DNA from: an uncultured delta proteobacterium
GTDB taxonomy: Bacteria > Desulfobacterota > Binatia > UBA9968
Direction of reading: 5' to 3'
DNA: 64,000 bases
Assembly: GCA_963804165.1 (NCBI GenBank)
Contig: CAWDPO010000045.1
Coordinates: 32,001-96,000 of the forward strand
Shown: positions 36,705 through 58,484 of the stretch, in pieces
Layout of the letters: each line of letters opens with the position of its first letter
How positions within the stretch are numbered: the stretch's first letter is position 1
The notes under the pieces: model-generated
Seen by the model: the letters and a program-made list of their open reading frames with translations, nothing else
Database searches by the model: none
Told to the model about the DNA's origin: nothing
Program-made: the position numbers and the translations under genes

Positions 36705-36720
36705 CGTCCAAAACTAGACA
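36705..36720. promoter_or_regulatory. YGTCY-N6-RGACR palindrome (putative Crp-family box A)
   Basis: CGTCC-AAAACT-AGACA. Confidence 0.6.
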
Positions 36721-36765
36721 ATTTTGAAAAGAAATGTCGCGCTGCGTGCGAGCGGCTTCCGTGCT

Positions 36766-37455
36766 CTACGCAATCTGCGCCAAGTAATCGGTGAGTTTCT
36801 TTTCTTTGATGATGAGAAAACGATCCTTGTTGGTCTCGATCAGACCAAGGTTATGGAAGCGCTGCATGAACAAGCTGATCCTTGGCCGCGTCGTGCCCAC
36901 CATCTCGGAGAGTTCTTCATGGGAAATCTTCAGCTCAATGCGGATGCTACGCGGGTCCTTCTTGCCCATGGAGCGGGCCAACTGCAACAACGTCCGGCCC
37001 AGCCGCTGTTCGCTATCCACCGTCACGAGATTAGCGATCACCTGCTGCTGGTCGGCAATCCGCACCGCCAGGTAGCGCACGAAACCCTCGAACAACGAGT
37101 CGCGGCTTAGACGCCCCAAGAATTGAGAGCAAGGAATCTGCTTCAGCATCGTTTGCTTCATCGCCGTCGCCGTTTCGAGGCGCGTGCCTAAGCCGGACAG
37201 GCATAGCTCACCGAAAACGTCTCCCGGACCCTGAATGGCCAGCAGGCACTCTTTGCCGTCGGACGACAGCATGAGCAGCTTGATCTGGCCGCTTTCAACA
37301 AAATAGACCATCTCGTCTTGATCGCCGCACGTATATACGTTCGCGTGTCGAGCGATCTTGACGGCGCGAGTATTCAGGGTCTCGCGCACTAGCGAATCAC
37401 GTAGTTGTTGTTTGAACTCGTCGGCTTGAGGAGTCTGTTGAATCGCCATCATCAT
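36766..37455 (-). CDS. Crp/Fnr family transcriptional regulator
   Basis: cNMP-type barrel (SGQIKL, FGELCL, RLETA); HTH HEELSEMVGTTRPRISLF. Confidence 0.93.
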   Translation of the reverse strand: MMMAIQQTPQADEFKQQLRDSLVRETLNTRAVKIARHANVYTCGDQDEMVYFVESGQIKLLMLSSDGKECLLAIQGPGDVFGELCLSGLGTRLETATAMKQTMLKQIPCSQFLGRLSRDSLFEGFVRYLAVRIADQQQVIANLVTVDSEQRLGRTLLQLARSMGKKDPRSIRIELKISHEELSEMVGTTRPRISLFMQRFHNLGLIETNKDRFLIIKEKKLTDYLAQIA

Positions 37456-37746
37456 GTCTCCTATCGATGCCCACGATGAAAACAACGACGGTCGACTTTC
37501 CTGGGGCGCTCGTTCGGTTATCCTTCGGCGAAGAACCTCCGCGGTTGACGGGCACCTATGAGACTATCGCGCGGCTGGCGCCGTGTCCAGGGGGGATGCT
37601 GTCCAATGCTTGAGCTGTTTCCGTATGTACCACAGCAAACTAAGCTGGTTAATCTAAGCTGGTCAATCCAAATTGCGGTGACCAAATTAGATTTGAGAGG
37701 AGTGAGCACGCTCCACAAGAGAGCCCTCCAACTGTTTTTGAACTAT

Positions 37747-39210
37747 TTATGACTCCTTTGGTTCGTAGGCAACGACGCGGTCACCGCCGGCCTGCTTGGC
37801 CGCATACATGGCATTGTCAGCCGCGTGGAGTAATTCAGCAGCCGTGGAACCGTGTTCAGGCGCATCGGCAACGCCAGCCGATACAGTGATCGCGCCTGGC
37901 GTCGAGAACCCGTGCCGAATCTGCTTTTCTTTAACCAGCACGCGGATTTGTTCCACGCGTTGATGGGTGTCCGCGAGCGATGAATCGGGCAGCACGAGGA
38001 CAAACTCATCGCCGCCATAGCGGCACGAGATATCGCTCTTGCGCAGCTTTTCACGCAGCGCTTGCGCCAACTCGCGTAACATCGAGTCGCCGGCGTCGTG
38101 GCCGAAGGTATCGTTGAACGGCTTAAAGTTATCGAGGTCGAGCATCACGACGCAGAGCGGCGAGTTGCCACGCCGCGCTCGATGCAGCTCGCGCGCTAGA
38201 TTCTCTTCCAAATAGCGCCGATTGCATAGCCCGGTCAGAGGATCATGGGTAGCCTGTTCGCGCAGCTCCTCCCGTAGTTTCAAATTATACAAAGACAGCT
38301 TGATCGTTTCGCCCACCGCCACGGCCAGTTGTTGCCTCGTGACCGAACCGATAAGTTTTCCTGCCGCGCCGGTGAGACACAACAGTCCGGTTGCTCCGCT
38401 CTTGACTATCAAAGGTACACACAAATAGCCGGCCTGGGGTTGATGGACAAAGTGATGACACAGCAAATCCACCCGGGGATCGATGACTTCATGCAATTGA
38501 CCGCGCCGTATCGCCCAACAGTCCTCCAATGAAAAGGGGGACTTTAGCGGTGACTCGTTGCCCCAATGGGCAACCTTCTCCAAGTGTTGATTCCGGCCGC
38601 CCGAAATAGCTAATCCGCCACTGTCCTCGGTAAATAATTCATTCGCCATCAGGCCAACCACCTGGTAGGCCTCGGCCTGGGTGGTGCACGATTGAAGCAG
38701 ATCGTTTAGGCGGATGAGCGACTTCATTTCCTCGTCACGCCTTTGTAGTTCAGCCACCGAAGCCCTCAACTCGTCATTGACCTTCCGTATACCCTCCTCG
38801 GCCTGTTTGCGGGCAGTAATGTCGCGGACGTTGCACTGGATCACGCGCCAGCCGTCGACCAGGTAGACATTGCTGACGAACTCCACCTGGATTTGTTGTC
38901 CGGCTTTGGTTTCCAACGGCAGGTTCTCGTAACGGATGTATTCCTTTTTCTGCAAGTCGCGCATGGCGTCCTGGCTCGCGGCAATATCTTTGACTGGACC
39001 GATCTCCCAGAGCGCCTTGCCGATTAACTCGGTGTGAGAATATCCCAGCATGTCTTGCAGGAACGGGTTGACGTCGGTGACCCGTCCCGTGTCCGCATCC
39101 AGGAGGAGAATACCGTCCTTAGCCGTCTCGAAGAGGCGCCGGTAGCGAAGTTCGGAAGCTCGCGACTGCTCCCGCGTGAGCGTGGCGCCATTGTCGGTGT
39201 TATCATCCAT
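37747..39210 (-). CDS. PAS-GAF-GGDEF diguanylate cyclase
   Basis: PAS ending RDIT; DPLTGLCNRR, DLDNFK.FNDTFGH, RYGGDEF; RKSD I-site. Confidence 0.93.
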   Translation of the reverse strand: MDDNTDNGATLTREQSRASELRYRRLFETAKDGILLLDADTGRVTDVNPFLQDMLGYSHTELIGKALWEIGPVKDIAASQDAMRDLQKKEYIRYENLPLETKAGQQIQVEFVSNVYLVDGWRVIQCNVRDITARKQAEEGIRKVNDELRASVAELQRRDEEMKSLIRLNDLLQSCTTQAEAYQVVGLMANELFTEDSGGLAISGGRNQHLEKVAHWGNESPLKSPFSLEDCWAIRRGQLHEVIDPRVDLLCHHFVHQPQAGYLCVPLIVKSGATGLLCLTGAAGKLIGSVTRQQLAVAVGETIKLSLYNLKLREELREQATHDPLTGLCNRRYLEENLARELHRARRGNSPLCVVMLDLDNFKPFNDTFGHDAGDSMLRELAQALREKLRKSDISCRYGGDEFVLVLPDSSLADTHQRVEQIRVLVKEKQIRHGFSTPGAITVSAGVADAPEHGSTAAELLHAADNAMYAAKQAGGDRVVAYEPKES

Positions 39211-39318
39211 TTCAGCACCCCTTTCCCCGCTGGCACGCTGCTTAACGAAAGGAAACCAAATCGATGTACCGACGAGACAGTTTATGGGTTATTATCTTGC
39301 GCTCATCGGCAAGAGTTC

Positions 39319-39334
39319 TGTCTAATATTGGACA
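39319..39334. promoter_or_regulatory. putative Crp-family box B
   Basis: TGTCT-AATATT-GGACA; minus-strand GATAAT at 39296-39291 (centre about -42.5). Confidence 0.75.
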
Positions 39335-39439
39335 ATCTTGAATGAAGTTATAACGAGGGCGGCGGGCTCGCGCGGCGTGTGGCGCGCTGCCATTCAGTTA
39401 AACGATGACATGGAAGCGGTCGCTAAAATGACAGAGATC

Positions 39440-39682
39440 CTAGCTGAAGTGGCCATTCTGGACATGGTTATCCACCCACACTCGCGCGGTCTCGATGGCG
39501 GAAATCTCAGCCTCGGAGGCATATACAAAGCGGTCTTGCGGACGACCTTTAAGAGAGGCCACGTGCTTTCTTTCACCCTCACTCCAACAAACACTGGCCA
39601 CGGGGAGCCAAAAGCAATCTCCAGCATCGCGCTGAGTCGCGACAAAGATCAGATGTTCCTTGTAAGTCATTCGCGCTTCCAT
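39440..39682 (-). CDS. small hypothetical protein
   Basis: YKEHLI...WLP...EAEISAIETARVWVD, similar to 35261-35488. Confidence 0.6.
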   Translation of the reverse strand: MEARMTYKEHLIFVATQRDAGDCFWLPVASVCWSEGERKHVASLKGRPQDRFVYASEAEISAIETARVWVDNHVQNGHFS

Positions 39683-39699
39683 CCGACATCTTGACTAAT

Positions 39700-41782: not shown

Positions 41783-42280
41783 TTAGTTGCTCGTTTGATG
41801 CGCGGCAAATTCGAGAGCTTTGAGACGATATTCCAGCTGTTCCTGAAACCATGTATCCCTGGGCCAGTGCCACTGCGCATGCGGCAGAGACTCGCCGCTA
41901 TAGGAGCAGCCATTCACCTTGCTCTGCAAGAAAATGAGCTGCCAGTAGCTCAGCTTGTCCTTTCCCGCACCATCAACACGAGTTCTGGTAAAAAGTTCTT
42001 TCACCAGTTCTGTAATCCCGCTCAAGGACTCTTGCGCCAGGAGTCCAACCGGAAATGATAGATTGTCCAGATGACCCACCTTCATTGCGACCTCCGCGAT
42101 AATTTTTTTCTTCAGACCAAAAGCAGTCCGCGCGCACGACTCGGGCCGGTTGCAGCGCGATGGTTCCTGTCCGCTCTTTTGCCGGTGTTTTAGTCCTGGC
42201 CCGGCCGGTATTATGGACAGATCGAGCGCAGCACAAATGGAGAGCGGAGAAAGCCATGCGAGTCGTCGCTTAACAACCAC
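41783..42280 (-). CDS. hypothetical protein (alternative start at 42085)
   Basis: GGAGG RBS before both GTG 42280 and ATG 42085; directly downstream of box C promoter. Confidence 0.45.
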   Translation of the reverse strand: MVVKRRLAWLSPLSICAALDLSIIPAGPGLKHRQKSGQEPSRCNRPESCARTAFGLKKKIIAEVAMKVGHLDNLSFPVGLLAQESLSGITELVKELFTRTRVDGAGKDKLSYWQLIFLQSKVNGCSYSGESLPHAQWHWPRDTWFQEQLEYRLKALEFAAHQTSN

Positions 42281-42343
42281 TACTCGGCCTCCTCGTCTAA
42301 ACCGTCTATTGGATTCAATCTATGCCGACTCGACAGAAGTTTC

Positions 42344-42359
42344 CGTCTAATATTGGACA
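42344..42359. promoter_or_regulatory. putative Crp-family box C
   Basis: CGTCT-AATATT-GGACA; minus-strand TAGATT at 42322-42317 (centre -41.5). Confidence 0.78.
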
Positions 42360-42478
42360 GGAATTGAAAAGAATTATCACACCCAGCTTCCAATCACTAA
42401 AAAATGCTCCGGGACACGTTTTCATTGCGTAATATCAACGAATTTTGGCAAACGATGCAGAAACATCGGCTGATTTCT

Positions 42479-42554: not shown

Positions 42555-42986
42555 ATGGCGTCGCACGATTGGGATTTCTTGATTTGGCATCGAGCTAACG
42601 ATCTGCTGCAGCAAGCAGGGCGGATCCATAGGAACTTTTTGCAAATAGCAGCCGGCGCTCACTATCGGGCATCTCCTGGTAGATCGCCAAGTTGGGAACC
42701 TCCCGTTAACGTCGTTGAGACTGATGAGAGCCTTTGGGTGATTTCGGCCATCGCGGGAATGGCAGCCGAGCGAGTAGATGTACGGCTGGAGGGACGCGAA
42801 CTTATCATTGCGGGCGTACGCCCGCTGCCAGATTGCTGCTCTGACGGGGAATTAAAGGTATGGGAAATCCCGCTCGGCCGCTTTGAGCGGCGACTCAGGC
42901 TCGTGCCAAGCGAACAAGCTCTATCGGTAGGAGAAATTTCTTTTCGAGACGGCCTGCTGATCATCGAGCTAAGGAAACATGCATGA
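42555..42986 (+). CDS. Hsp20/alpha-crystallin family protein
   Basis: WEPPVNVVET, L.I.G.R, EIPLGRFERRL, DGLLIIEL. Confidence 0.88.
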   Translation: MASHDWDFLIWHRANDLLQQAGRIHRNFLQIAAGAHYRASPGRSPSWEPPVNVVETDESLWVISAIAGMAAERVDVRLEGRELIIAGVRPLPDCCSDGELKVWEIPLGRFERRLRLVPSEQALSVGEISFRDGLLIIELRKHA

Positions 42987-45397
42987 ACACCGAAGAAGAA
43001 GAAAAGGAATCCTCTAAATCCAAGCAGCGTCTCAATATTCCCGAAGGAGCCTTGGTCATCATACCGATGCGCAATCGGGTGCTGTTCCCCGCCATGATGA
43101 TGCCGCTTTCGGTCCGTAGCCCGGCCAGGCGCCGCGCTGTCGAGGAGGCGGTTCGACAACAAGTGCCGATTGGATTTGTTGTCCAACGCGATCCGAATAT
43201 AGAAGTTCCAGAGCCCAAGGACCTCTACGCGGTCGGCACCGCCGCGGATGTTGTAAGGATGTTTACCCTGCCGGACGGTCAGCGTCAGGTTCTCCTGCAA
43301 GGCCGCCGCCGCTTTGAGATCGGCGAATTCCTCGAGACCGATCCGGTTCTTATCGCGCGCGTCACGATGGTGGAAGAAAAGATACCGCAGACCAAGGACT
43401 TCGAGGCGAGAATCTTACATCTACGTCAAGAAGCAGCCCGGGCCTTGTCGTTATTCTCTGAGCCCATGAACGAACTAAGATCGATGATCGATAGGATTGA
43501 AGATCCCTTATCGGTTATCGATATGATCGCTTCCACCTTGGACCTTCCGACCGCCGAGAAACAAGAAATCCTCGGAATACTCGACCCGGAGGCGCGCGCC
43601 CAAAGGGTTTCAGAAAAGTTGGCGCGGCAGATTGAACTGCTGGAACTGAGCAAGAAAATCGGCACTGAAACCAAGGAATCCATGGACAAGTCGCAGCGCC
43701 AATATTTCCTGCGCGAACAATTGAAGGCAATCCAGAAAGAGCTGGGTGAGGCGGATGGGAAAGGTGTCGAGGTTGAGGAACTAAGAAAAAAACTTTACGA
43801 CGCTAAAATGCCTCCTGAGGTGGAAAAAGAAGCGCTTAAAGAGCTGGCTCGTTTAGAGCGCATTCCCGAGGCGGCGCCGGAACACTCGCTGTTGCGGACT
43901 TATTTCGATTGGTTGGTGGAGTTGCCCTGGAGCATTTTTACCGAGGAAGAGATCGACCTGCCGAAGGCGCGCCAGATTCTTGACGCCGACCATTACGGTC
44001 TGGAAAAAGTGAAAAAGCGGATCATTGAATTTCTCGCTGTTCGTAAACTCATGCCGCATGGAAAGAGCCCGATTCTCTGCTTGGTCGGACCGCCGGGTGT
44101 CGGAAAAACCTCCCTTGGACAAAGCATTGCTCGGTCGATGAATCGTAAGTTCGTACGCCAAAGTCTGGGCGGCGTCCATGATGAAGCCGATATTCGCGGG
44201 CATCGGCGTACCTATGTCGGCGCGCTTCCGGGCAATATCATTCAAGGAATCCGCAAGGCAGGCAGTCGAAATCCTGTCTTCATGCTCGATGAAGTGGACA
44301 AACTCAGCGCGAGTTTTCATGGCGACCCGTCCGCGGCGTTATTGGAGGTCCTCGATCCCGCTCAAAATGCCACCTTTCAAGACCACTACATCGCGCTGCC
44401 CTTCGATCTCAGCCAGGTGCTGTTCATCGCTACGGCGAACGTGCTCGATACCGTTCCCGGCCCGCTGCGCGATCGCATGGAAATCTTGGAATTGCCGGGA
44501 TACATCGAGGAAGATAAATTGGCCATCGCCAAGGGCTACCTCGTTCCTCGGCAGACCGCCGAAAATGGCCTGAAGCCGGAAAACATTAGTTTCACCGACG
44601 AGGCGATTCGAGAAATTATCCGGTCCTACACGCGCGAGGCCGGGGTTCGGCAACTCGAGCGTGAGCTGGGAGCAGTTTGCCGGAGCGTGGCCACGCGTAT
44701 CGCGGAAGGGTTCAATGAAACGATCACAGTCAAGCCGGAATCTATTCCTACCTACTTGGGCCCGCAAAAGTTCTTCAACGAGATCGCTCTGCGCACCAGT
44801 TTGCCCGGTGTAGCCACCGGCTTGGCCTGGACGCCGTTCGGCGGGGACATTTTGTTTGTCGAAGCGACAAAGATGGCGGGAGATGGAAGGTTACTATTAA
44901 CCGGCCAGCTCGGCGATGTCATGAAAGAAAGCGCGCAGGCCGCTTTGAGCCTGGTCAAATCTCGCGCGGAATCGTTGGGAATCGATTCCGATATCTTCAA
45001 GAAAATCGATTTACACATTCATCTCCCGGCGGGCGCGATCCCGAAAGACGGTCCGAGCGCTGGAATCACGCTCTTTGTCGCGCTCGTTTCACTGCTGACC
45101 GGGCGACGAATCAGCAAAGATGTCGCCATGACCGGTGAGATCAGTTTGCGTGGTTTGGTGCTCCCGGTAGGAGGAATCAAAGAGAAAATGCTCGCGGCAA
45201 AGAGAGCCGGGATTTCCACGGTTCTGCTGCCTGAGTTAAACCGGAGAGACCTTGAAGAAATACCCCCGGCAGGCCGCGACGGGATCCGCTTCGAATTTTT
45301 AAAAACCGCGGACGAAGCTTTGCGGCTTGCGCTCAAGGCCGACGCCCCGAGCGGTTATTCTCCTGGTGAAAGACTGGCGGCTCAATTTCTTTCATAA
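42983..45397 (+). CDS. lon: ATP-dependent Lon protease
   Basis: GPPGVGKTS, GHRRTYVGA, PKDGPSAG catalytic Ser, GGIKEK. Confidence 0.97.
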   Translation: MNTEEEEKESSKSKQRLNIPEGALVIIPMRNRVLFPAMMMPLSVRSPARRRAVEEAVRQQVPIGFVVQRDPNIEVPEPKDLYAVGTAADVVRMFTLPDGQRQVLLQGRRRFEIGEFLETDPVLIARVTMVEEKIPQTKDFEARILHLRQEAARALSLFSEPMNELRSMIDRIEDPLSVIDMIASTLDLPTAEKQEILGILDPEARAQRVSEKLARQIELLELSKKIGTETKESMDKSQRQYFLREQLKAIQKELGEADGKGVEVEELRKKLYDAKMPPEVEKEALKELARLERIPEAAPEHSLLRTYFDWLVELPWSIFTEEEIDLPKARQILDADHYGLEKVKKRIIEFLAVRKLMPHGKSPILCLVGPPGVGKTSLGQSIARSMNRKFVRQSLGGVHDEADIRGHRRTYVGALPGNIIQGIRKAGSRNPVFMLDEVDKLSASFHGDPSAALLEVLDPAQNATFQDHYIALPFDLSQVLFIATANVLDTVPGPLRDRMEILELPGYIEEDKLAIAKGYLVPRQTAENGLKPENISFTDEAIREIIRSYTREAGVRQLERELGAVCRSVATRIAEGFNETITVKPESIPTYLGPQKFFNEIALRTSLPGVATGLAWTPFGGDILFVEATKMAGDGRLLLTGQLGDVMKESAQAALSLVKSRAESLGIDSDIFKKIDLHIHLPAGAIPKDGPSAGITLFVALVSLLTGRRISKDVAMTGEISLRGLVLPVGGIKEKMLAAKRAGISTVLLPELNRRDLEEIPPAGRDGIRFEFLKTADEALRLALKADAPSGYSPGERLAAQFLS

Positions 45398-45875: not shown

Positions 45876-46310
45876 TTAGACCGCCCTGCGCTGCTCGGCC
45901 GTCGTCTCATGAGCAGATTGCTTGTGTGACGATATCCGGTCGCCGTCGTGCCAGCGCCGGAGCCCTTGGCGGATATACTGCGGGCATAGCTCGAGCACAT
46001 TGCAAATGGAGACAAACGAGAAGGGCCAATGAGGATCATCGCTGAACAACCAATGCTCGGCTTCCCGACCTAAATGTTTGGCGCGCCGGGTAGCGCGGCT
46101 AAACTGCTTCTGAAAGCAATCCACGGCATCTTCAAGCACGGCGCACATCAACGCCGCTTCTGCATAGCTAACGGCGCGGCTGGGTCGAGCATTGAACGCC
46201 TCGTCTGCGAGCATGTCCTTCCCGGGCCCGCGTTCGGATACGGGCTTTCGGTCAGCGGCCACGGCCTGCGGTAATTTGCTTTGCCGAGATTGGATGTGCG
46301 TAGCATGCAT
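45876..46310 (-). CDS. hypothetical protein, paralog of 21279-21722
   Basis: EAALMCAVLEDAVDC...WLFSDD..PFSFVSICNVLELCPQYIRQGL; GAGGAG RBS. Confidence 0.8.
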   Translation of the reverse strand: MHATHIQSRQSKLPQAVAADRKPVSERGPGKDMLADEAFNARPSRAVSYAEAALMCAVLEDAVDCFQKQFSRATRRAKHLGREAEHWLFSDDPHWPFSFVSICNVLELCPQYIRQGLRRWHDGDRISSHKQSAHETTAEQRRAV

Positions 46311-46468
46311 ATTGCCCCTCCCTCCTCTAAGAAATGCCAAAAAAGTGCAGCGCGACCCCTACTATGACGGGACCAAGTTGCGCGTTGCTTGGAGCCAGCT
46401 CAAGCCCAGCGCCAAAACTGAGCGAAAAAATTCTAATAAAGTTTACGAGATTCCTGTTGGCTGTAAAT

Positions 46469-46669
46469 TCAGGTCTCGTTCTGCCTCTCCAGCGGCAAAT
46501 GCGCTTCCCCACATCGTCGTTGCCGATCACGCGCGTCTCGGTGTGAGAGCCCTTGCCTCAACGAGATGATTTCATCTCGAGTTTCCCCTAGTACTGGATT
46601 GCTTTCACGGTCGCTTCTGCCTCGGTGTGGGGGTCGTCGACCCTCAGCACGGCGGTTGTCGGTAGCCAT
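46469..46669 (-). CDS. small Arg-rich hypothetical protein
   Basis: GGAGGT RBS, about 20 nt below the predicted TSS of the box D promoter. Confidence 0.45.
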   Translation of the reverse strand: MATDNRRAEGRRPPHRGRSDRESNPVLGETRDEIISLRQGLSHRDARDRQRRCGEAHLPLERQNET

Positions 46670-46722
46670 GGGACACCTCCGTCTCTTTCGGAGTTACCCT
46701 AAGCCGACGCGATAAGGGTTTC

Positions 46723-46738
46723 TGTCTAATATTGGACG
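46723..46738. promoter_or_regulatory. putative Crp-family box D
   Basis: TGTCT-AATATT-GGACG; minus-strand TAGGGT at 46701-46696 (centre -41.5). Confidence 0.78.
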
Positions 46739-46922: not shown

Positions 46923-47411
46923 CTAAGCGAGCGAGAAAGCAAACGGATCGCTTCGCATCAGCATCTCTCTGATTTCATCCCGATGTTTTTTCTGCTCTCG
47001 GGAAATCTGCTGCAGAAATTTGGCGATGTCGGGGTCTTCGGATTCCATACTCCGGAGTTGCTCCGGTAGGCGATCCGCCGAGCGATACTCTTCGTCGAGA
47101 GCCATGGACAAAGATTGCCAACTGTTTTCGTCCGTTGAGGGACGCTCCGCCACTTCCGGCGGCTTGCCCCCGAGCGCGACGATTTTTTCGCCGATCCGCT
47201 CGGCATGTTGACTTTTTTCCTTCGCCATCCGCAGGAATTTCTCGCGATACTGCCGATAGTGCATCGTCTCGGCATGCTGTTTAAACCGCTCGATCCGCTG
47301 CATCTCTTCGACATAGCGCCGGCATAAAAGGTCGACGGCGTCGGGAGCTTTGTCGGGAGCAAGATCGAGCAAACGGCGCCACCATTCCGACCAGGTTTTG
47401 CTAAAGGGCAT
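46923..47411 (-). CDS. ferritin-like domain protein
   Basis: EKSQHAERIGEKIVALGG and EQKKH four-helix ExxH-type motifs. Confidence 0.75.
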   Translation of the reverse strand: MPFSKTWSEWWRRLLDLAPDKAPDAVDLLCRRYVEEMQRIERFKQHAETMHYRQYREKFLRMAKEKSQHAERIGEKIVALGGKPPEVAERPSTDENSWQSLSMALDEEYRSADRLPEQLRSMESEDPDIAKFLQQISREQKKHRDEIREMLMRSDPFAFSLA

Positions 47412-47721
47412 ATTGATTATTCCTTTTTTGAAAAGCCGCTCATACTCTCGAGCAATCAATCGATGCTAAGCGAGAGTTTCGACTCGCAGGCTTTTTCTTT
47501 TGTGTTTCGGTTCGATCATTCTTCACCGACTTACATAATCGCGGCCCGGCAGGAATTGCTGTCCAGAGAGGCCGAGTTGAAGCGTGGTGAAGGCGAGTTC
47601 GGGAATCTTTCTTCACCGCAGAGAGCTAGCGCGACAGGGCGGCAATCAAAGAAGAAAGGATGGTTTCCACCACAAAGAGCTTAAGCGGCATAGAAATGTC
47701 ACCGATTCACGATCAAGCAAA

Positions 47722-49143
47722 TTACTCACTACCACTTTGTCCCCGGGATTGCGCTTCCTCTGGATTGGTATCAGGAATCGAGGCTTCTTCTCGAAAGCCG
47801 TATTTAATCAATTTATAACGCAGCGCCCGCTCGCTCATTCCCAGCAACTCTGCGGCGCGGGTTTGGACGCCATCGGATCGGGCCAGGGCGTCCCTGATCA
47901 TGCGCCGCTCCAGCGCTTCCACCGCGACCGTGAGATTAGTTTCCGTGTCGCGGTCCGATATTTCTGGCTCCTGAACCGTCAATGGTAGATCACCGCTGCC
48001 GATCACATCATCCCTGGTGAGAACCACTGCGCGCTCGATAATATTTTCCAGCTCGCGGACATTTCCCGGATAGTCGTAGCGTAACAGAATATCCCGGGCT
48101 TCATGGGTAAGACCGCGGATCGTCTTGCCGTTTTTATCAGCGAAATGGCGCAGGAAGTGGTCCATCAGCAGTGCAACATCGGAGCGCCTTTCCCGCAGCG
48201 GTGGAATTAGGATCGTGACTACATTGAGCCGAAAGTAGAGATCTTCCCGCAGCTGTCCCGCTTTGATGAGATCCTCGAGCGGCCGATGGCTGGCCGCCAT
48301 GATCCTGACGTTGACCTTGACCGGACGACTGGAGCCCACCTTCTCGTATTCGCGCTCTTGAAGCACGCGCAGCAGCTTCGCTTGCAGATGCAAGGGAAGG
48401 TCGCCGATTTCGTCGAGAAAGATCGTCCCACCATTGGCTAATTCAAAGCGCCCCTGGCGCGAACCTATCGCGCCCGTAAAAGCGCCTTTTTCATGGCCGA
48501 ATAATTCCGATTCGAGCAGCGCTTCCGGAAGTGCCGCGCAGTTTACCTTGACGAGAGGACCCGAGGCTCTTGGGCTGGCAAAGTGGATGGCCCTGGCAAT
48601 CAGCTCTTTTCCCGTGCCGCTCTCGCCACGGATCAAGACCGTCGCTTCGCTCGGCGCCACCCGACGCACCAAAGAAAGGACTTCAAGCATCTGGCCGCTC
48701 TCGCCGATGATTCCTTCGATGCGATGGCGTTCCCGTAAGGCTTCCCGCAGCTCGCGGTTCTCGTTGATAATTCGATAGCGGTCGCTGACCTGTCGAATGC
48801 GGTAAAGCAGCTCATCCAAATTCAGCGGCTTGGTCAGGTAGTCGGTCGCTCCTCCCCGGATAGCGGAAACGGCCGCTTCGATGCTGCCGAAGGCGGTCAT
48901 CAAAATGACCGGGATTTCAGGGTTGATGGCGCGAACGGCCTGCAACAGATCCAAACCCGACATGTGGGGCATCTTTTGATCCGTGAGAATCAGATCGATG
49001 GAGTCCTGCCGAAAAAGCTCCAAGGCCCTTGCGCCGGTTTCGGCTGCGACGACGTCAAAGGCCTGCTTTTTGAGGAAACCCGAGACCATCTCGCGCTGGA
49101 CCGGTTCGTCGTCGACTACGAGAATACGGAAACGATTGGGCAT
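47722..49143 (-). CDS. sigma54-dependent response regulator (NtrC/ZraR/AtoC family bEBP)
   Basis: receiver; GESGTGKE, ESELFGHEKGAFTGA, FLDEIG, PGNVREL; Fis-type HTH. Confidence 0.96.
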   Translation of the reverse strand: MPNRFRILVVDDEPVQREMVSGFLKKQAFDVVAAETGARALELFRQDSIDLILTDQKMPHMSGLDLLQAVRAINPEIPVILMTAFGSIEAAVSAIRGGATDYLTKPLNLDELLYRIRQVSDRYRIINENRELREALRERHRIEGIIGESGQMLEVLSLVRRVAPSEATVLIRGESGTGKELIARAIHFASPRASGPLVKVNCAALPEALLESELFGHEKGAFTGAIGSRQGRFELANGGTIFLDEIGDLPLHLQAKLLRVLQEREYEKVGSSRPVKVNVRIMAASHRPLEDLIKAGQLREDLYFRLNVVTILIPPLRERRSDVALLMDHFLRHFADKNGKTIRGLTHEARDILLRYDYPGNVRELENIIERAVVLTRDDVIGSGDLPLTVQEPEISDRDTETNLTVAVEALERRMIRDALARSDGVQTRAAELLGMSERALRYKLIKYGFREEASIPDTNPEEAQSRGQSGSE

Positions 49144-50873
49144 TTACACCTCCACACCGTAATGGGAAGGGAAATTTGGAAGCGGGCCCCGTGGCCAGCT
49201 TCGCTGGAAACACTGATCGTTCCGCCGTGGGCCTCTATAATCCTGCGGGAGATCGCCAGACCCAGCCCGGTACCCTTCGCCTTAGTCGTGAAGTAAGGCT
49301 CGAAGATACGCGGGTAGTTTTCCGGCGCAATCCCGGTTCCAGTGTCGGTGACGCTGATCAAACAATTGTCCTTTGACGTTTTCGCCTCCAGCGTCAAGGT
49401 TCCACCTTCGGGCATCGCTTGCAGACCGTTAAGAATAAGATTCAAGAGCGTTTGTCTGAAATATTCACGGTCCGCCTTGAGCGGCGGCAGAGTCAGCGGA
49501 GTAACAACTCGGATGTGCACCTTCGATTGCTGAGCTTCGCCTTCCACCAATATGGCTAATTCATTAAGGACATCCTGCACTGACAACTCCTCACGTTTGA
49601 TTTCGAGAGGGCGCGCCAGCGAGAGGAATTGCTCCACTATCGAGTTGAGGCGGTGCACTTCGCCGAGCATGAGTCCAGTAAGGCGAGAGTAGTCCTCCGG
49701 ATCATCGGTTGGGTAAAATTCCACCTTGAGACGTTGCAGTCCCATCGAAATGGCGTTGAGCGGATTTCTGACCTCGTGCGCGACCGCCGCAGCCAGGTTT
49801 CCTAGTGCTGAAAGGCGCTCTCTCTGTAACACTTCAGCCTCCAGGGCTTTGACCTCGAGCATATGAGTATGCTGGTTATGAAAAATCGCCGCCATGCCCA
49901 AAATCCCCGCGCCTAGGATCGCCAAGCCGAGAATAAGGATGGCGCGCACGCTATTGCGCCAGGCGATCACCATCGTTCCCAGTGACAGACCGATCTTGAG
50001 GAAACCCAAATTGGCTTCATCCAGTGCCACAGGTTGCACCACCTCAAGGTACCGTTTTCCGCCATCGCTCTCGACGATTTGGCTGAAAAGCTGACGGTCG
50101 ACTTTGGCTTTCAATACCAGCGGCTCTTTTTCCTGCTGCCCGATCCGGCGCCGGTCAGTATGCGCTATAACATTCAGGTCGCTATCGAGAAAAGCGACGA
50201 ACTCACTGTCCGATTGGCGGCCAAGATCCTCGATCTGGCGTTGCACTCCGATCGCTTTCTCGAAGTTGAAAATATAATCCGCGTTGGCATGGATCGCGAT
50301 GATGCCTGGAAAACTACTCGCGCCCACGGCGACGCCGAAGGCGCTGCCTTTCCAGAATTCTTTATCCTTGAAGCCCGGCGGCGGTTGCCCCGTCTTTTCC
50401 TCGGCTTTTTCCGTGGGCAGCCGCCAGCGCTTTCCCCACGCGTAGCTTATCGTTGGGCGCTGCGGCTGAAAGGTTTCTTCTCGCGCTTTTTGCCGTGCTA
50501 TCATCGCCGGCAGCGCGGCAAGTTTCCAGGGCCGGCCCTGCTCATCGAGGAGATCGATTTTTTGCAGGCGGTTCATCGCACTGATCTCTTTAAGCAGTGC
50601 CTCGTCGACATGACGGGAGAGCAGCAGTTGATCGATCAGCCGGGCATTATCCACCAAACGCTGCCGGATCAGATCCTCCAACAGGGCGTTGCCGACAATG
50701 GCATTTTTAACACTGGTCTCCATGGCCTTTGCCAATGCCGTCCCCTTGTCCTCAGTCTGGCGCAAGAGTTCTTGCTGAAGCCGCCGGGCTTCAAAAAAAA
50801 CATAGAGGGATGCCAAGATGAGAAGTAGCAGACCCGATGCGAGAAAGTGGCGTGGTAGAAAAACCCTTCGCAT
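49116..50873 (-). CDS. membrane sensor histidine kinase
   Basis: two TM helices around a periplasmic domain; AHEVRNPL, NGLQAM, DTGTG, GTGLGL. Confidence 0.93.
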   Translation of the reverse strand: MRRVFLPRHFLASGLLLLILASLYVFFEARRLQQELLRQTEDKGTALAKAMETSVKNAIVGNALLEDLIRQRLVDNARLIDQLLLSRHVDEALLKEISAMNRLQKIDLLDEQGRPWKLAALPAMIARQKAREETFQPQRPTISYAWGKRWRLPTEKAEEKTGQPPPGFKDKEFWKGSAFGVAVGASSFPGIIAIHANADYIFNFEKAIGVQRQIEDLGRQSDSEFVAFLDSDLNVIAHTDRRRIGQQEKEPLVLKAKVDRQLFSQIVESDGGKRYLEVVQPVALDEANLGFLKIGLSLGTMVIAWRNSVRAILILGLAILGAGILGMAAIFHNQHTHMLEVKALEAEVLQRERLSALGNLAAAVAHEVRNPLNAISMGLQRLKVEFYPTDDPEDYSRLTGLMLGEVHRLNSIVEQFLSLARPLEIKREELSVQDVLNELAILVEGEAQQSKVHIRVVTPLTLPPLKADREYFRQTLLNLILNGLQAMPEGGTLTLEAKTSKDNCLISVTDTGTGIAPENYPRIFEPYFTTKAKGTGLGLAISRRIIEAHGGTISVSSEAGHGARFQISLPITVWRCKCPIVSVFS

Positions 50874-50912
50874 GGATGAAATGATTATAGTCACGATTGC
50901 TTGCTAATATGC

Positions 50913-53054: not shown

Positions 53055-53729
53055 TCACGCCAATTTCCTCAAAGCGTTGATTCTCTCTTCGGTTCCCGGG
53101 TGTGTAGATAAGAAACCACCACCACTGTCCCCTCCCGAGGTCCGCGTCAGCCAGGTCAGCGTGTCGATCATTACCTCTTTGGAATGACCGGCTCGACGCA
53201 AGATCTCGACACCGTGACGGTCCGCTTCCAACTCCTCTGAGCGGCTGTAGCTGTTTGCAATGAGCGCCCCCGCGATCGGGGTCACCGCGCTACTGCCCGG
53301 TATGAGCTGTTCGAGCAGAATTACGCCGATGTTGAGACCTGTACCCAAAGTCTGTGCTCTGGCCACGTGGCCAAGATCATCGTGAGCAATCTCGTGCGCC
53401 AGCACGCCTCTCAATTGCTCGTCGTTGGCCTTTGCAAGCAGCCCGGTCGTGACTTGAAACTCGCCGCCTCCCGCATTGGCGGCGTTGATGTTTGGATCGT
53501 CAATTACCCGAACTCGTATTTCATTTGAACGGCGCGGGTTAGTCGTCGCGCGCAGCAGCGGCAGCATGATCCGCTGCACTCGCTCCGTCTGCCTCGGATC
53601 GAGCGGACGGCCGGCCGAAGAGCGCGGTGTTTGTTGTGGGGCTGGCCCTCGCGATGAACTGGTCTCCAGCACGCAACCCGTTGTCGCCGTGGCGAGAATC
53701 AAAACTGCTATCATTCGAAGGAATCTCAT
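53055..53729 (-). CDS. M48 family metallopeptidase lipoprotein
   Basis: TGC lipobox; INAA, LAHEIAH, YSRSEELEAD, LSTHP. Confidence 0.9.
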   Translation of the reverse strand: MRFLRMIAVLILATATTGCVLETSSSRGPAPQQTPRSSAGRPLDPRQTERVQRIMLPLLRATTNPRRSNEIRVRVIDDPNINAANAGGGEFQVTTGLLAKANDEQLRGVLAHEIAHDDLGHVARAQTLGTGLNIGVILLEQLIPGSSAVTPIAGALIANSYSRSEELEADRHGVEILRRAGHSKEVMIDTLTWLTRTSGGDSGGGFLSTHPGTEERINALRKLA

Positions 53730-53912
53730 CGCTTCCCCGTCATCGGATCAAGCAACCCCGAAGGTAAATCGGTCAACGGTTGTCCCGAAGAAAACTGTCC
53801 ACCTCAAATCGTTCGCGATCGAGGAATCTTCCCTCGACTCCGACGTAATCCCCGAACCGAAGCGCCGGCGTTCTATTGAATTGGAAACCTATCCTGACTC
53901 CCGAGGGATTGC

Positions 53913-53928
53913 CGTCCAGTATTAGACA
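53913..53928. promoter_or_regulatory. putative Crp-family box E
   Basis: CGTCC-AGTATT-AGACA; minus-strand TAGGTT at 53891-53886 (centre -41.5). Confidence 0.78.
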
Positions 53929-53974
53929 GGATTGAAAAAATATCGGAGAAGTCCCCCTCGCGAGGCTCCGGGGG

Positions 53975-54149: not shown

Positions 54150-54290
54150 TTACTGTCCGCTGAGACTCAATGGAATTTCAAGTTGAGTGATATTATTCGG
54201 AACGGGGTCCTGTTTCCTTGGAGGTACGTGGCCACAGTTTATGCAATAAAACTCTGGAACAATATAATTTTGGCAACGCGGACACTTCAT
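54150..54290 (-). CDS. 46-aa zinc-ribbon microprotein (not in ORF track)
   Basis: MKCPRCQNYIVPEFYCINCGH... with two CxxC; first gene behind sigma54 promoter P2. Confidence 0.7.
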   Translation of the reverse strand: MKCPRCQNYIVPEFYCINCGHVPPRKQDPVPNNITQLEIPLSLSGQ

Positions 54291-54349
54291 AGTTTTATTT
54301 CCGTTTCCGTCTTATTTCGTTCTTTACGCTATGTGTGCTCTATCGAAGA

Positions 54350-54364
54350 GCAGGTTGTGTGCCA
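54350..54364 (-). promoter_or_regulatory. sigma54 promoter P2
   Basis: TGGCAC-ACAAC-CTGC. Confidence 0.8.
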
Positions 54365-54446: not shown

Positions 54447-54471
54447 GTCGAGACCTTCGACCAAAAGGTCG
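54447..54471. promoter_or_regulatory. putative bEBP enhancer copy 2
   Basis: GTCGA-GACCT-TCGACC-AAAA-GGTCG. Confidence 0.8.
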
Positions 54472-55295: not shown

Positions 55296-55375
55296 ATTTT
55301 TCTAACCTTCTTTCTTTTGCCTCAGAGTCTATCGATATTCGGCATTTTATTGCGAAGGGCTCAGCGGTCCTTCTC

Positions 55376-55549
55376 TCAGGACTGTGGATCCTTTTGTCGG
55401 GTCGCGGTCACGCCATGGACGATCGCCAGGCCGATCAGACAGAGAATGCCCACCCCGATCCACTGCATCGGCACGTGGAGCAGATTGGCTCCGATCGCCA
55501 GGCCGGCGATCAGTATGATGTATCCGACCAGGTAAATTCCAAATGACAT
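55376..55549 (-). CDS. 57-aa two-TM small protein (not in ORF track)
   Basis: AAGGAG RBS; MSFGIYLVGYIILIAGLAIGANLLHVPMQWIGVG...TRQKDPQS. Confidence 0.78.
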   Translation of the reverse strand: MSFGIYLVGYIILIAGLAIGANLLHVPMQWIGVGILCLIGLAIVHGVTATRQKDPQS

Positions 55550-55681
55550 GGGTATTTCTCCTTGACTACTACTTTTATTGAATTTTCTTCCCGTAAGCCC
55601 CTTTTTTCCTGACCCGAGAATAAAGCGACTCGGCAGGATTTCTTGCAGGTAAATGCGATAGGGTTGGGCGGCACGGCCATC

Positions 55682-56362
55682 CTAGGCAATCTGCGCGAGG
55701 TAATCGGTGAGTTTGTTTTCCTTGATGATGAGAAAATGATCGCTATTGGTTTCGATCAATCCCAGGTTGCGAAATCGCTGCATGAAGAAGCTGATCCGAG
55801 GCCGTGTCGTGCCCACCATCGCGGATAATTCTTCATGGGAAATCTTCAGCTCGATGCGAATACTGCGCGGATCTTTCTTGCCCATGGTGCGGGCCAATTG
55901 CAGCAACGTCTGACCCAGCCGTTGCTCGCTGTCCGCCGTCACCAGATTGGCGATGACGTGCTGTTGGTCGGCGATACGAACGGCCAGGTAGCGCACGAAT
56001 CCCTCAGACAAGGAGTCGCGGTTTAAGCGCGCAAAGAACTGGGCACAGGGTATTTGTTTTAACGTCGTTGGTTTCATCGCCACCGCAGTTTCGTGCCGCG
56101 CCCCTAACCCGGATAAGCACAGCTCGCCGAAAACATCTCCGCTGCTATGGATGGCCAGCAGACATTCTTTACCTTCGGGCGAGAGCAGAAGCAGCTTGAT
56201 CTGGCCGGTCTCGATGAAATAGACCATCTCGTCCTGGTCGCCGCAGGTGTAAACATTCGCGTGCCGTGCGAACGTCACAGGACGAGAGTTCAGCGTCTCG
56301 TGCTGCAACGAATCGCGCATTTGCTCTTTGAAGCGTTCCGCTTCGGGAGTCTGTTGAATCAT
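55682..56362 (-). CDS. Crp/Fnr family transcriptional regulator (second paralog)
   Basis: closely similar to 36766-37455; HTH GTTRPRISFF. Confidence 0.93.
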   Translation of the reverse strand: MIQQTPEAERFKEQMRDSLQHETLNSRPVTFARHANVYTCGDQDEMVYFIETGQIKLLLLSPEGKECLLAIHSSGDVFGELCLSGLGARHETAVAMKPTTLKQIPCAQFFARLNRDSLSEGFVRYLAVRIADQQHVIANLVTADSEQRLGQTLLQLARTMGKKDPRSIRIELKISHEELSAMVGTTRPRISFFMQRFRNLGLIETNSDHFLIIKENKLTDYLAQIA

Positions 56363-56421
56363 GGGTCGCGTTTCCGACTAATGGCGCTGAGCCCAATCTC
56401 CGGCGCTCTTTTGAACAAGTA

Positions 56422-56450
56422 ACCTCAGGAGTGAAACCCTATGCCTTAAA
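56422..56450. repeat. 29-bp direct repeat copy 1 (probable promoter)
   Basis: ACCTCAGGAGTGAAACCCTATGCCTTAAA; 28/29 identical to 63393-63421. Confidence 0.8.
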
Positions 56451-56484
56451 TTCCTCTAACCTTTCTTGCATGCTTGCGACCCCT

Positions 56485-56634
56485 TTAAAGCCGGCCGGTC
56501 AAGAGCAGAACAACCACGATCAGCAGAACGACACCAGCGAGACCCGAGGGCGCAAAGCCAAATTTGTGAAAACCCCAGTTCGGTAGACCTCCCACCAGAA
56601 ACAGAAGCAATACGATCAACAGTATCAGGCTCAT
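56485..56634 (-). CDS. DUF3309 family small membrane protein (not in ORF track)
   Basis: MSLILLIVLLLFLVGGLPNWGFHKFGFAPSGLAGVVLLIVVVLLLTGRL. Confidence 0.88.
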   Translation of the reverse strand: MSLILLIVLLLFLVGGLPNWGFHKFGFAPSGLAGVVLLIVVVLLLTGRL

Positions 56635-56680
56635 AGTCAGTTACCTTCTTTCGATTTTTCTTTTCTCAATGACGATAGGA

Positions 56681-56695
56681 GCAGCTTACGTGCCA
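56681..56695 (-). promoter_or_regulatory. sigma54 promoter P3
   Basis: TGGCAC-GTAAG-CTGC. Confidence 0.8.
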
Positions 56696-56778
56696 GTTCC
56701 CACGGTCAGGAAGAGACTGCATTTCGCGAGGGATTATTTAACGCTCCGGGGAAATCGGAGGGACGGTTCGGCGAAAGA

Positions 56779-56803
56779 GTCGAAACGATCGACCAAATGG
56801 TCG
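56779..56803. promoter_or_regulatory. putative bEBP enhancer copy 3
   Basis: GTCGA-AACGA-TCGACC-AAAT-GGTCG. Confidence 0.8.
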
Positions 56804-57088
56804 AGTTACCTAGCGCGGCAGGGCTGCAACCAAAAAAACAGGGGATTCACCATGAAGGCACCAAGGACGCGAAGGGTTTGAATCATTTAAGTTTCAAGCT
56901 TCGTGCTCTTTCGTTGGGCACGGAAAATTGCGCAAACCGCGTAAACCTCCAATTAGGGTAGTACGGCAAACTACTGTGGTCAACGCGACAGCAGCGTAGG
57001 TCCGGAAAGTGGCGGCCGAGAATTTTGCTCGTTGGGAAAAAAACGACGAGCTCGATAGATTCTTAGTAAAGAGACGAATCAAATCAGA

Positions 57089-57136
57089 ATCAGCGTCCCC
57101 GCCGTATGCGTTTCGATATACGACGGGAACGCTGAT
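57089..57136 (-). terminator. hairpin downstream of the Q-rich gene
   Basis: ATCAGCGTCCCCGCCGTAT...ATACGACGGGAACGCTGAT. Confidence 0.55.
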
Positions 57137-57176
57137 CCATGGGGCGTTGTTTGTTTAGCGCGCTAACCTCTCGTCG

Positions 57177-58346
57177 TCAGCGAAGATCCTGAAAATTGAG
57201 GATTTGTGACAAAATGGTTTCCAAGATGGAAGGGTTTCCATCAGCAAAGCGGCCGTATTGATATCGGCTATTGTAGCCATCTTCATAACCACGGCGGAAG
57301 CCCTGACGGAAGTAGTAATTGTAGTCGCGCCGGTCTACGTAATAGCCACTGTAACCGTAGTTTGCGTCCCGATAGGCATAAGAGTCCTTGTAGTTGGAAC
57401 CCCAACGGTCGTCCCGGTCTGCCCTTCCGGCGCGGAAGCCTTCTTCATAGCCATAGTTCACCGCCTGCCGCAGCGTCTTCGCGCCGTATTCGTTCGTTTC
57501 GTAGTAGTTGCTGCCGCCACGATTGTAACGATAGATCGGCGCCGTGTAGAAGTACGGGTCATGATCGTAATCGAACCGATTGTCCCGGAGATGGATCTGC
57601 TGCTGACGCACGCGCTCTAAATACTGTTCCTGAAAACGATACTGCGCGACGCGCTTTTGTTGCTTTAGCAGCGCTGCACGCTGTCGTGCGAGACGCTCCT
57701 GCTGTTCCAGATGCTGACGGTACTGCGCCACCCGTTGTTGCTGTTGATCAATAAGCTTTTGTTGCTGCTGCTGTGACAGACGCTCTTGTTGTCTCTGTTG
57801 TTGAATTTGGTCTTGCCTCTGCTGTTGCTGCGCGCGCTGTTGTTTCTGGATTTGCTCGGATTGACGCTCAACCCGCTCTTGCTGCTGCTGTTGTCGCGCT
57901 TGCTGTCTTTTGTTCTCTGCTGATTTTTGCTGAACGCGCTGTTGCTGCTGCTTCTGGTCCTGTTTCTGCTTTTTGCTGCTCCGCTCTTGCTGCTGTTGTT
58001 GCTGCTGAACGCGATGTTGCTGTTGCTTCTGGTCCTGCTCTGATTTTCGCTGCGCGCGCTCCTGCTGCTGGTCTTGTTTCTGCTTTTGCTCTTGCTGGTG
58101 CTGTTTTTGCTCAACGCGCTGTTGCTGTTGCTTCTGGTCCTGCACTGATTTTCGTTGCACGCGCTCTTGCTGCTGCTGGTTTTGTTTCTGTTTTTGTTCT
58201 TGCTGCTTTTCATGCTGATCGCGCTTTTGCTCTTTTTGCTCTTCCTGCGCTTCTCGTTGTCCATCGGCCGCTGTACTGATTCCCGCCAATGACAGGGTGC
58301 TGATGACAAGCGCCATCACCATCCGATCTAAGATATTAATTTTCAC
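57177..58346 (-). CDS. secreted glutamine-rich coiled-coil protein with Tyr/Gly/Arg-rich C-terminal domain
   Basis: GTG start after AGGAGGAG; signal peptide; about 200 aa of Q/K/E/R repeats; GYEEGFRAG and GFRRGYEDGY. Confidence 0.85.
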   Translation of the reverse strand: MKINILDRMVMALVISTLSLAGISTAADGQREAQEEQKEQKRDQHEKQQEQKQKQNQQQQERVQRKSVQDQKQQQQRVEQKQHQQEQKQKQDQQQERAQRKSEQDQKQQQHRVQQQQQQQERSSKKQKQDQKQQQQRVQQKSAENKRQQARQQQQQERVERQSEQIQKQQRAQQQQRQDQIQQQRQQERLSQQQQQKLIDQQQQRVAQYRQHLEQQERLARQRAALLKQQKRVAQYRFQEQYLERVRQQQIHLRDNRFDYDHDPYFYTAPIYRYNRGGSNYYETNEYGAKTLRQAVNYGYEEGFRAGRADRDDRWGSNYKDSYAYRDANYGYSGYYVDRRDYNYYFRQGFRRGYEDGYNSRYQYGRFADGNPSILETILSQILNFQDLR

Positions 58347-58468
58347 GGTACTCCTCCTGGTGTTTCGGGCATGTAAATTTGAGATAAAGCGTAAGTATGA
58401 TTATTTCTGCGAGTCGCTAAACCTCGATGCCTTTATTTCTATAGGATACGTCTTCTTAGAAGACTCAC

Positions 58469-58484
58469 AGTTCATTATTGGACA
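58469..58484. promoter_or_regulatory. putative Crp-family box F (imperfect)
   Basis: AGTTC-ATTATT-GGACA; minus-strand TATCCT at 58448-58443 (centre about -40.5). Confidence 0.6.

Follow-up and report, generated by a model that had tools for sequence, protein, structure and literature searches.

The question raised by this locus is which protein acts at a short palindrome that recurs ahead of stress-type genes in a 64,000-nucleotide (64-kb) stretch of DNA, hereafter the window, from an uncultured delta proteobacterium of the Binatia. The window (contig CAWDPO010000045.1, positions 32,001 to 96,000; G000:C45:32001-96000 in the numbering used here) belongs to a genome, G000, of 7.5 Mb in 46 contigs with a GC content of 55.8%. 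In the initial annotation, the palindrome was described as a new operator of CRP geometry located at the class II activator position, and it was assigned to two Crp proteins encoded in the same window, both with the residues T-R-P-R in the recognition helix. The sequence comparisons described below point to TTRPR-type Crp dimers, which probably bind the palindrome and activate the associated promoters in a class II manner.

Operator copies in the window and in the genome

The strict pattern YGTCY-N6-RGACR (YGTCYNNNNNNRGACR) was counted in the window, with 100 dinucleotide-preserving shuffles as the control. Six matches were found against 0.96 expected, and none of the 100 shuffles reached six. 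Five of the six copies listed in the initial annotation (36705, 39319, 42344, 46723, and 53913) are exact matches, and the remaining one, at 58469 (AGTTCATTATTGGACA), breaks the pattern at two positions. The identical 14-nt core GTCTAATATTGGAC noted for three of the copies is present at 39320, 42345, and 46724. The sixth exact match, at 47129-47144 (CGTCCGTTGAGGGACG), was not in the earlier list; it is probably a chance match because it lies inside a ferritin-like open reading frame (ORF; 46923-47459), the common flanks are missing, and about one chance match is expected in the window.

A 37-nt scoring matrix, built solely from sites of other genomes, assigned 37.9-43.8 bits to the five strong sites, 22.0 bits to 58469, and 21.6 bits to 63457, and the best score in the reversed window was 16.2 bits. 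The earlier description of 63457 as a weaker copy is borne out by this score, and both 58469 and 63457 have flanking blocks in common with the other window sites. The matrix orients all seven sites on the minus strand, facing minus-strand genes, and all seven fall between ORFs taken as genes, as had been stated for their intergenic placement.

A genome-wide scan with TGTCYAATATTRGACA, for which the reversed genome served as the control, yielded 8, 18, 8, and 17 sites with zero, one, two, and three mismatches, respectively, compared with 0, 0, 2, and 16 in the reversed sequence. At up to two mismatches, 34 sites were found versus 2 in the control, and therefore about 34 sites in the genome are real. 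These sites are spread over 16 contigs. Ten of them, together with three weaker ones, lie at 68-122 kb of contig C45 (window positions 36000-64000 and beyond), so that 13 of the 37 sites considered fall within about 53 kb, in a stretch whose genes are stress-type and mostly on one strand. A foreign island was considered on the basis of composition and rejected, as the GC content of this stretch (53.4-54.7%) is not distinctive against that of the genome (55.8 +/- 2.4%).

Promoter architecture

The 34 sites of this genome and 63 from other genomes were combined into a set of 96 unique oriented sequences, which were oriented by their AT-rich flank and then aligned. The full 16-bp palindrome consensus is TGTCCAATATTRGACA, and it is embedded in an architecture of about 60 bp common to the sites, aaTT.TTTTcAA.at-TGTCCAATATTrGACA-G.AAtCc-N15-TAnnnT. 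Positions G2, T3, A14, and C15 are invariant (96/96), with G2 and C15 separated by 13 bp, and the inner AATATT is kept in 86-94 of the 96 sites. The earlier description of a 5-6-5 palindrome was right about the CRP geometry with TGT...ACA ends but understated the motif, in which the inner 8 bp are equally conserved.

Downstream of the palindrome, T38 (56/96), A39 (63/96), and T43 (67/96) make up a TAnnnT hexamer that begins exactly 21 nt past its end, which implies a centre-to-start distance of -41.5 relative to the inferred -10; this value assumes that the hexamer spans -12 to -7. In the window, the hexamers TAGATT, TAGGGT, and TAGGTT begin exactly 21 nt past the 16-mers at 42344, 46723, and 53913, in agreement with the -41.5 centring first given for these three copies, and their predicted transcription start sites (TSS; Table 1) follow from the hexamer coordinates. 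The weak variant at 63457 has TATCGT at the same spacing. Further sites near -41.5 had also been proposed; of these, 58469 is centred at -40.5 (TATCCT at 20 nt), but no exact TAnnnT is present at 15-27 nt from 36705 or 39319. The -35 region (positions 15-20) reads CAG(a/c)AA, a poor -35 that is overlapped by the site and recalls TTGACA by its G and A's alone. Upstream of the palindrome, T is found in 66-80 of the 96 sequences at positions -11 and -9 to -6, and this AT-rich block would correspond to an UP-like element.

Co-occurrence of the operator with crp genes

Species-representative genomes were scanned, and 79 loci (419,552 bases) were found to encode proteins 68-95% identical to the local Crp, in records labelled Candidatus Binatia, 'Deltaproteobacteria', Thermodesulfobacteriota, Syntrophobacter, Acidobacteriota, Blastocatellia, and a few others. 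These loci contain 66 sites at up to two mismatches, in 51 of the 79, and the reversed control contains none. The crp stop codon is followed in 14 loci, at a distance of 34-52 nt, by a site that reads away from crp, as does the copy at 36705, which begins 46 nt past the stop codon of the first local crp gene; in 15 loci, a co-oriented site is found within 1.5 kb upstream of crp. To judge from the record labels, the operator's candidate regulator occurs in several soil phyla.

In a class sample of 121 genomes, searched for Crp at E <= 1e-40 and for the motif at up to one mismatch, the Crp carriers were G000, G347, G312, and G329, with motif counts of 26, 2, 0, and 3, respectively. The motif is accordingly present in three of the four Crp-bearing genomes, compared with 2 of the 117 without Crp, which have one match each. 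A phylum-wide sample contributed 300 other genomes, none of which has the exact motif. Five further genomes, reached through the 79 loci and picked for carrying Crp, contain 9, 18, 6, 8, and 3 sites versus 0-1 in the backward control, although three of them already showed a nearby site and kin are not independent. Co-occurrence with the Crp subfamily, on which the assignment had been made to depend beforehand, was present in 51/79 loci, in 3/4 versus 2/117 genomes of the class sample, and in 5/5 of the further genomes.

TTRPR-type Crp proteins

Both local Crps carry the sequence ...MVGTTRPRIS(L/F)FMQRF, so the T-R-P-R recognition helix was correctly read. The cNMP-binding domain (PF00027) scores 50.0 and 51.5 bits in the two proteins against a cut-off of 27.5, and the Crp-type helix-turn-helix (PF13545) scores 54.2 and 50.8 bits against a cut-off of 27. 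In contrast, the named NCBIfam equivalogs (CRP, FNR, NtcA, PtrA, LdrP, FixK, and YeiL) gave at best 55-60 bits against cut-offs of 245-300. By both domains, the local Crps are members of the CRP/FNR family, and by these scores they are in none of the named subfamilies. The best solved-structure matches are GlxR, Mycobacterium tuberculosis CRP, and CooA-1 (E 1e-20 to 3e-18, full length). Residues 27-215 align to GlxR, with R-P-R opposite the R-E-T of GlxR; in E. coli CRP numbering, these residues are Arg180, Pro181, and Arg182, and position 185 is a variable hydrophobic residue.

Of 73 homologues retrieved with a regular expression, 71 retain TTRPR, and the whole helix-turn-helix is near-invariant. 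At the contacts to the phosphate of cyclic AMP (cAMP), the Arg is conserved and is followed by H-E where GlxR has T-S (R-H-E versus R-T-S). Among 79 homologues, the only near-invariant cysteines are Cys67 (78/79) and Cys82 (73/79), and a four-cysteine set is not present. The genome contains only four full Crp-family genes, three of which are of the TTRPR type (the third on C43); the fourth, on C6, reads SRQQV. The true start of the first paralog in the window (Crp1) is probably one of its internal Met codons. A search for the subfamily gave 4457 proteins at E <= 1e-10, with generic names for all among the 120 matches listed, and a search of a protein atlas returned only generic Crp/Fnr clusters.

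Proposed mechanism and alternative explanations

In the most probable mechanism, TGTCCAATATTRGACA would be the operator of the Crp/FNR subfamily with the helix G-T-T-R-P-R-I/V-S, of which three paralogs are encoded in the genome and two in the window. A Crp dimer positioned at -41.5 would activate promoters with a weak -35, and activation would be aided by the AT-rich block that directly precedes the site and resembles an UP element. The C-terminal domain of the RNA polymerase alpha subunit (alpha-CTD) binds AT-rich DNA just upstream at class II CAP promoters, and the AT-rich block here, at about -64 to -50, would occupy the alpha-CTD position. The promoters would drive a dispersed but island-enriched stress-type set comprising Usp, M48, PAS-GGDEF, OmpA-like and peptidoglycan-binding envelope proteins, and many small uncharacterised proteins, with CsbD and superoxide dismutase (SOD) among the targets in relatives, and they would also drive the neighbourhoods of crp genes. 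In the recognition helix, the first Arg, at the CRP Arg180 position, may read the invariant G, and the loss of Glu181, which is Pro here, could permit C at the fourth base. The invariant Arg at the CRP Thr182 position may help to read the G:C pairs at positions 4-5 and could perhaps explain the conserved inner bases. For the CRP family, specificity has been attributed to Arg180, Glu181, and Arg185, the latter two of which read positions 7 and 8 (PMC2677863).

Several observations weigh against this mechanism. The conservation of the flanks is partly circular, as the AT-rich flank itself set the orientation, although the -10 signal is not circular. Conservation of the inner 8 bp at the level of the half-sites is unusual for CRP-family sites. 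The copies at 36705 and 39319 have only near-hexamers in place of TAnnnT, namely GATCGT at 21 nt and GATAAT at 22 nt, respectively. Genome G312 has a Crp of 76% identity but no site at up to one mismatch, and G305 and G401 each have one 1-mismatch site but no Crp match at the E-value threshold of the class sample (E <= 1e-40). No site lies directly upstream of the second local paralog, Crp2. Finally, since the 79 loci were chosen through the crp gene, adjacency cannot separate binding of the site by Crp from crp being a target.

Adjacency and co-occurrence would also be expected if crp and the true binder travel together, and it could then be a different regulator of the same stress island or regulon that binds the operator, with the crp genes as co-regulated targets. 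The window does encode an NtrC-like regulator and a histidine kinase, and response-regulator genes occur downstream of sites. This explanation is nevertheless unlikely: TGT-N10-ACA ends with an invariant G and C 13 bp apart are a CRP-family signature, and ORF clustering found no other regulator gene recurring in more than 10 of the 79 loci. Furthermore, enhancer-binding proteins use sigma-54 promoters, whereas here position 12 is A in 47 of the 96 sequences, the GG of a -24 box is not conserved, and a TAnnnT -10 is present. A sigma-54 promoter with TGGACAG as the -24 box was itself rejected on the composition of position 12, the lack of GC 10 nt further on, and window counts at the chance level. 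Two other candidates were set aside on geometry: a MerR-type operator would lie in a long -35/-10 spacer, but the palindrome sits upstream of and over the -35, and PpsR/CrtJ sites have TGT-N12-ACA instead of the TGT-N10-ACA spacing found here.

It is equally improbable that the Crps bind the palindrome but mainly repress, anti-activate, or play mixed roles, in the manner of MrpC, which regulates its own expression negatively and competes with MrpB, an enhancer-binding protein. The site does overlap the -35 region, MrpC, whose motif is compatible, is described as repressing some promoters (PMC8844925), and sigma-54-like matches are found at 54349 and upstream of small ORFs before Crp2. These matches, however, occur at the chance rate (2 found versus 1.99 expected), and three features, namely the strict one-position spacing, the missing good -35, and the AT-rich block upstream, are in keeping with promoters that depend on an activator. 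That the copies belong to a repeated or mobile element, or form a chance pattern with no regulatory role, is very improbable. Some near-duplicate copies with long common flanks do exist (three on C2 and one C2/C24 pair), but the sequence between the conserved blocks varies freely, in many genomes the sites stand ahead of genes unrelated to one another and keep a constant distance from a -10-like hexamer, and shuffled and reversed controls yield almost no copies.

Comparison with known CRP-family systems

Class II promoters of the CRP/FNR type, such as those of E. coli CRP and FNR and of Thermus TAP (PDB 5i2d, a sequence match), have several features in common with the present system, namely a dimeric Crp-family protein, a 16-bp TGT...ACA palindrome centred 41.5 bp from the inferred start, a poor -35, and AT-rich DNA upstream. 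They differ in the half-site, which is TGTCC/TGTCT here and TGTGA there, and in the residues of the triad, which are Arg, Pro, and a hydrophobic residue with an extra invariant Arg at the Thr182 position here and Arg180/Glu181/Arg185 there. In addition, the inner AATATT is nearly invariant here, and the contacts to the cAMP phosphate are R-H-E in place of R-S/T. The system would work like a class II CRP/FNR activator and appears to represent a new helix/operator pair, not a new principle. GlxR of Corynebacterium and the M. tuberculosis CRP Rv3676, the best solved-structure matches (E of about 1e-20, with both domains aligned), have R-E-T at the helix positions that are R-P-R here. GlxR and Rv3676 bind TGTGA-type sites.

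CooA, the CO sensor of Rhodospirillum and Desulfovibrio, is described as having the operator consensus TGTCGGCNNGCCGACA with TGTC...GACA half-sites, so that the outer geometry, TGTC-N8-GACA, is identical to that found here (PMC545781), and its triad likewise lacks Glu181 (PMC2677863). The comparison with CooA drawn in the initial annotation agrees with these published descriptions on both the operator and the missing Glu181, and CooA-1 of Carboxydothermus is a sequence match to the local Crp (E 3e-18). In contrast, the inner bases are CAATATTG here and GGCNNGCC in CooA, and the triad has Pro and a hydrophobic residue here where CooA has Gln and Thr. No carbon monoxide dehydrogenase (coo) genes were found among the 40 + 51 scanned downstream ORFs or the 30 window ORFs. 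A CooA regulon was thus rejected, as the inner 8 bp, the triad, and the target genes all differ.

MrpC of Myxococcus xanthus is a CRP-family regulator of development and starvation. The motif obtained for it by chromatin immunoprecipitation sequencing, TGTYN8RAC, contains the TGTC-N8-GAC found here (PMC4320627), and the two motifs are compatible. MrpC is described as controlling a starvation- or stress-type regulon, as having no known ligand, and as linked to control by an enhancer-binding protein and a diguanylate cyclase (PMC8844925); a similar setting is seen here, with an NtrC-like gene, a histidine kinase gene, and a PAS-GGDEF gene as neighbours. The sites of MrpC are degenerate and numerous (1608 peaks), whereas the present motif is sharp over all 16 bp, and the class II position is not reported as a general feature of MrpC sites. 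The TGTC half-site alone is no novelty, as it already occurs in the operators of CooA and MrpC. A literature search for the operator core strings, for TGTC-N8-GACA-type strings, and for Crp in Binatota, Binatia, or Blastocatellia, with subscription journals outside its scope, found no description of this operator among the papers listed.

Downstream genes and other features of the locus

The coordinates of the two crp genes, the operator copies, and an example of the AT-rich block are given in Table 1.

Table 1. Positions, strands, and sequence properties of the crp genes and operator copies in the window.
Feature	Position	Strand	Properties
Crp paralog 1 (P0001), helix GTTRPRISLF	36766..37485	-	Pfam cNMP_binding and HTH_Crp_2 above cut-off
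Crp paralog 2 (P0002), helix GTTRPRISFF	55682..56362	-	Pfam cNMP_binding and HTH_Crp_2 above cut-off
Operator copy TGTCTAGTTTTGGACG (minus-strand reading)	36705..36720	-	Exact match, 42.4 bits; GATCGT 21 nt downstream
Operator copy TGTCCAATATTAGACA	39319..39334	-	Exact match, 43.8 bits; upstream of PAS-GGDEF gene 37747-39210, then Crp1
Operator copy	42344..42359	-	Exact match, 38.1 bits; -10-like TAGATT 42317-42322; predicted TSS ~42310
Operator copy	46723..46738	-	Exact match, 37.9 bits; -10-like TAGGGT 46696-46701; predicted TSS ~46689
Operator copy	53913..53928	-	Exact match, 42.2 bits; -10-like TAGGTT 53886-53891; predicted TSS ~53879
Weak operator variant TGTCCAATAATGAACT	58469..58484	-	Fails strict pattern, 22.0 bits; TATCCT 20 nt downstream
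Weak operator variant GGTCTCTTTTTAGACA	63457..63472	-	21.6 bits; TATCGT 21 nt downstream; predicted TSS ~63423
AT-rich block, example ATAATTCTTTTCAAT... (minus strand)	42360..42374	-	Directly promoter-distal of operator; 96-site position frequencies

The predicted target of the site at 36705 is the small ORF that follows on the minus strand (36197-36607, or 36200-36427 in a shorter version). The site at 39319, the PAS-GGDEF gene, and Crp1 could form an autoregulatory operon, and PAS-GGDEF ORFs preceded by a site are also found in loci L045 and L060. Downstream of 42344 lies an ORF of no known function (41783-42280 or 41976-42257). Genes for Hsp20 and a Lon protease are located on the plus strand (42555-45397), divergent from this operator; as its plus-strand side has no -10-like hexamer at class II spacing, control of Hsp20 and Lon by 42344 is not indicated. 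The site at 46723 is followed by a 66-aa ORF (46469-46669, with GGAGGTG ahead of it) and a 154-aa ORF (45876-46340). The site at 53913 is located upstream of an M48 peptidase gene (53055-53729), after which same-strand uncharacterised ORFs, an OmpA-like gene, the histidine kinase gene, and the NtrC-like regulator gene follow. Of the weak variants, 58469 precedes an uncharacterised 389-aa ORF (57177-58346), and 63457 precedes ORFs of 75 aa and 208 aa, which are followed by BON and YtxH genes. The uncharacterised downstream ORFs of the window encode 66, 154, 165, 389, 75, and 208 aa.

Elsewhere in the same genome, 40 candidate downstream ORFs were scanned, 27 of which have no Pfam match at E <= 0.01; the matches include a tandem Usp gene (two copies), an OmpA-collagen-like protein, a peptidoglycan-binding protein, a response regulator, and an alpha/beta hydrolase. 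In other genomes, 34 of the 51 first downstream ORFs scanned have no Pfam match, and the families represented include LapA-domain, CsbD, Fe/Mn SOD, fatty-acid desaturase, a glycogen-branching-type enzyme, Gly-zipper, PRC-barrel, CarD, PAS-GGDEF (twice), and crp itself. Judging from these family names, the downstream set may constitute a general stress or dormancy regulon.

Some copies are followed, after the promoter, by 100-200 nt in which the copies agree with one another but no convincing ORF is seen. These are C2:253075, 254249, and 258323 (L081-L083), and ORF-less operator pairs of the same kind are C15:199456 / C33:31150 and C5:24279 / C34:118128. Such stretches may be Crp-dependent small RNAs or leaders; an Rfam search of the window and of seven loci that carry sites gave no family at the gathering score. 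At G415:C71:23620-23722, four tandem operator copies are arranged in about 100 bp, with starts at 23620, 23667, 23687, and 23707.

Sigma-54-like TGGCAC-N5-CTGCT boxes were observed at 56680-56695 and 54349-54364, both on the minus strand and 40-60 nt ahead of small ORFs. The former (TGGCACGTAAGCTGCT) precedes an ORF of about 49 aa, hydrophobic and located upstream of Crp2, and the latter precedes a Cys-rich ORF (about 54150-54290); in the window, one-mismatch matches to such boxes occur at the chance rate (2 versus 1.99). The NtrC-like activator gene (47722-49143) and the histidine kinase gene (49116-50894) lie near these boxes.

Distribution and biological significance

Genomes G413 and G415, labelled Acidobacteriota and Blastocatellia, encode Crps (L118, L119, and L122, on contigs of up to 1.6 Mb) that are 74-82% identical to those of G000. 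By comparison, the best Lon matches in G413 and G415 are 51% identical, and few target genes are common to G000 and these genomes. The conservation of Crp relative to Lon suggests either extreme constraint or transfer between phyla. For the island-type Lon of the window (42983-45397), matches of 85-87% were confined to G414 and G416, and the match in G416 lies about 500 bp from an operator copy.

The genome G000 (7.5 Mb, 81% completeness, 5% contamination) contains three Crp copies and, at up to one mismatch, 26 sites. Members of its genus and family (G305, G347, G291, G312, G329, and G396) have genomes of 3.9-5.1 Mb, with 0-3 sites and 0-3 Crp copies. The G000 bin may be mixed, or the regulon may have expanded in this lineage.

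A broader proposal, which is possible but rather doubtful, is that an unusually conserved Crp-family master regulator, through one invariant 16-bp operator at -41.5, controls the general stress or dormancy response in soil bacteria that are abundant and uncultured. Such a regulator would perhaps be ligand-independent and would perhaps have spread between phyla by gene transfer, recruiting local stress genes by promoter evolution. If this were true, Crp would fill the role held elsewhere by the sigma factors SigB, RpoS, or EcfG.

A sharp, testable operator and promoter architecture is assigned here, at the probability given above, to a so far unstudied Crp subfamily that numbers thousands of metagenomic proteins. 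The pairing of an Arg-Pro-Arg recognition helix with TGTCC would join the specificity code of the CRP family and may be of use in engineering orthogonal regulators. Dozens of small uncharacterised proteins and several ORF-less transcription units are flagged as predicted co-regulated stress genes. The operator would thereby offer a first handle on the wiring of stress regulons in uncultured soil lineages whose records are labelled Binatia, 'Deltaproteobacteria', and Acidobacteriota.

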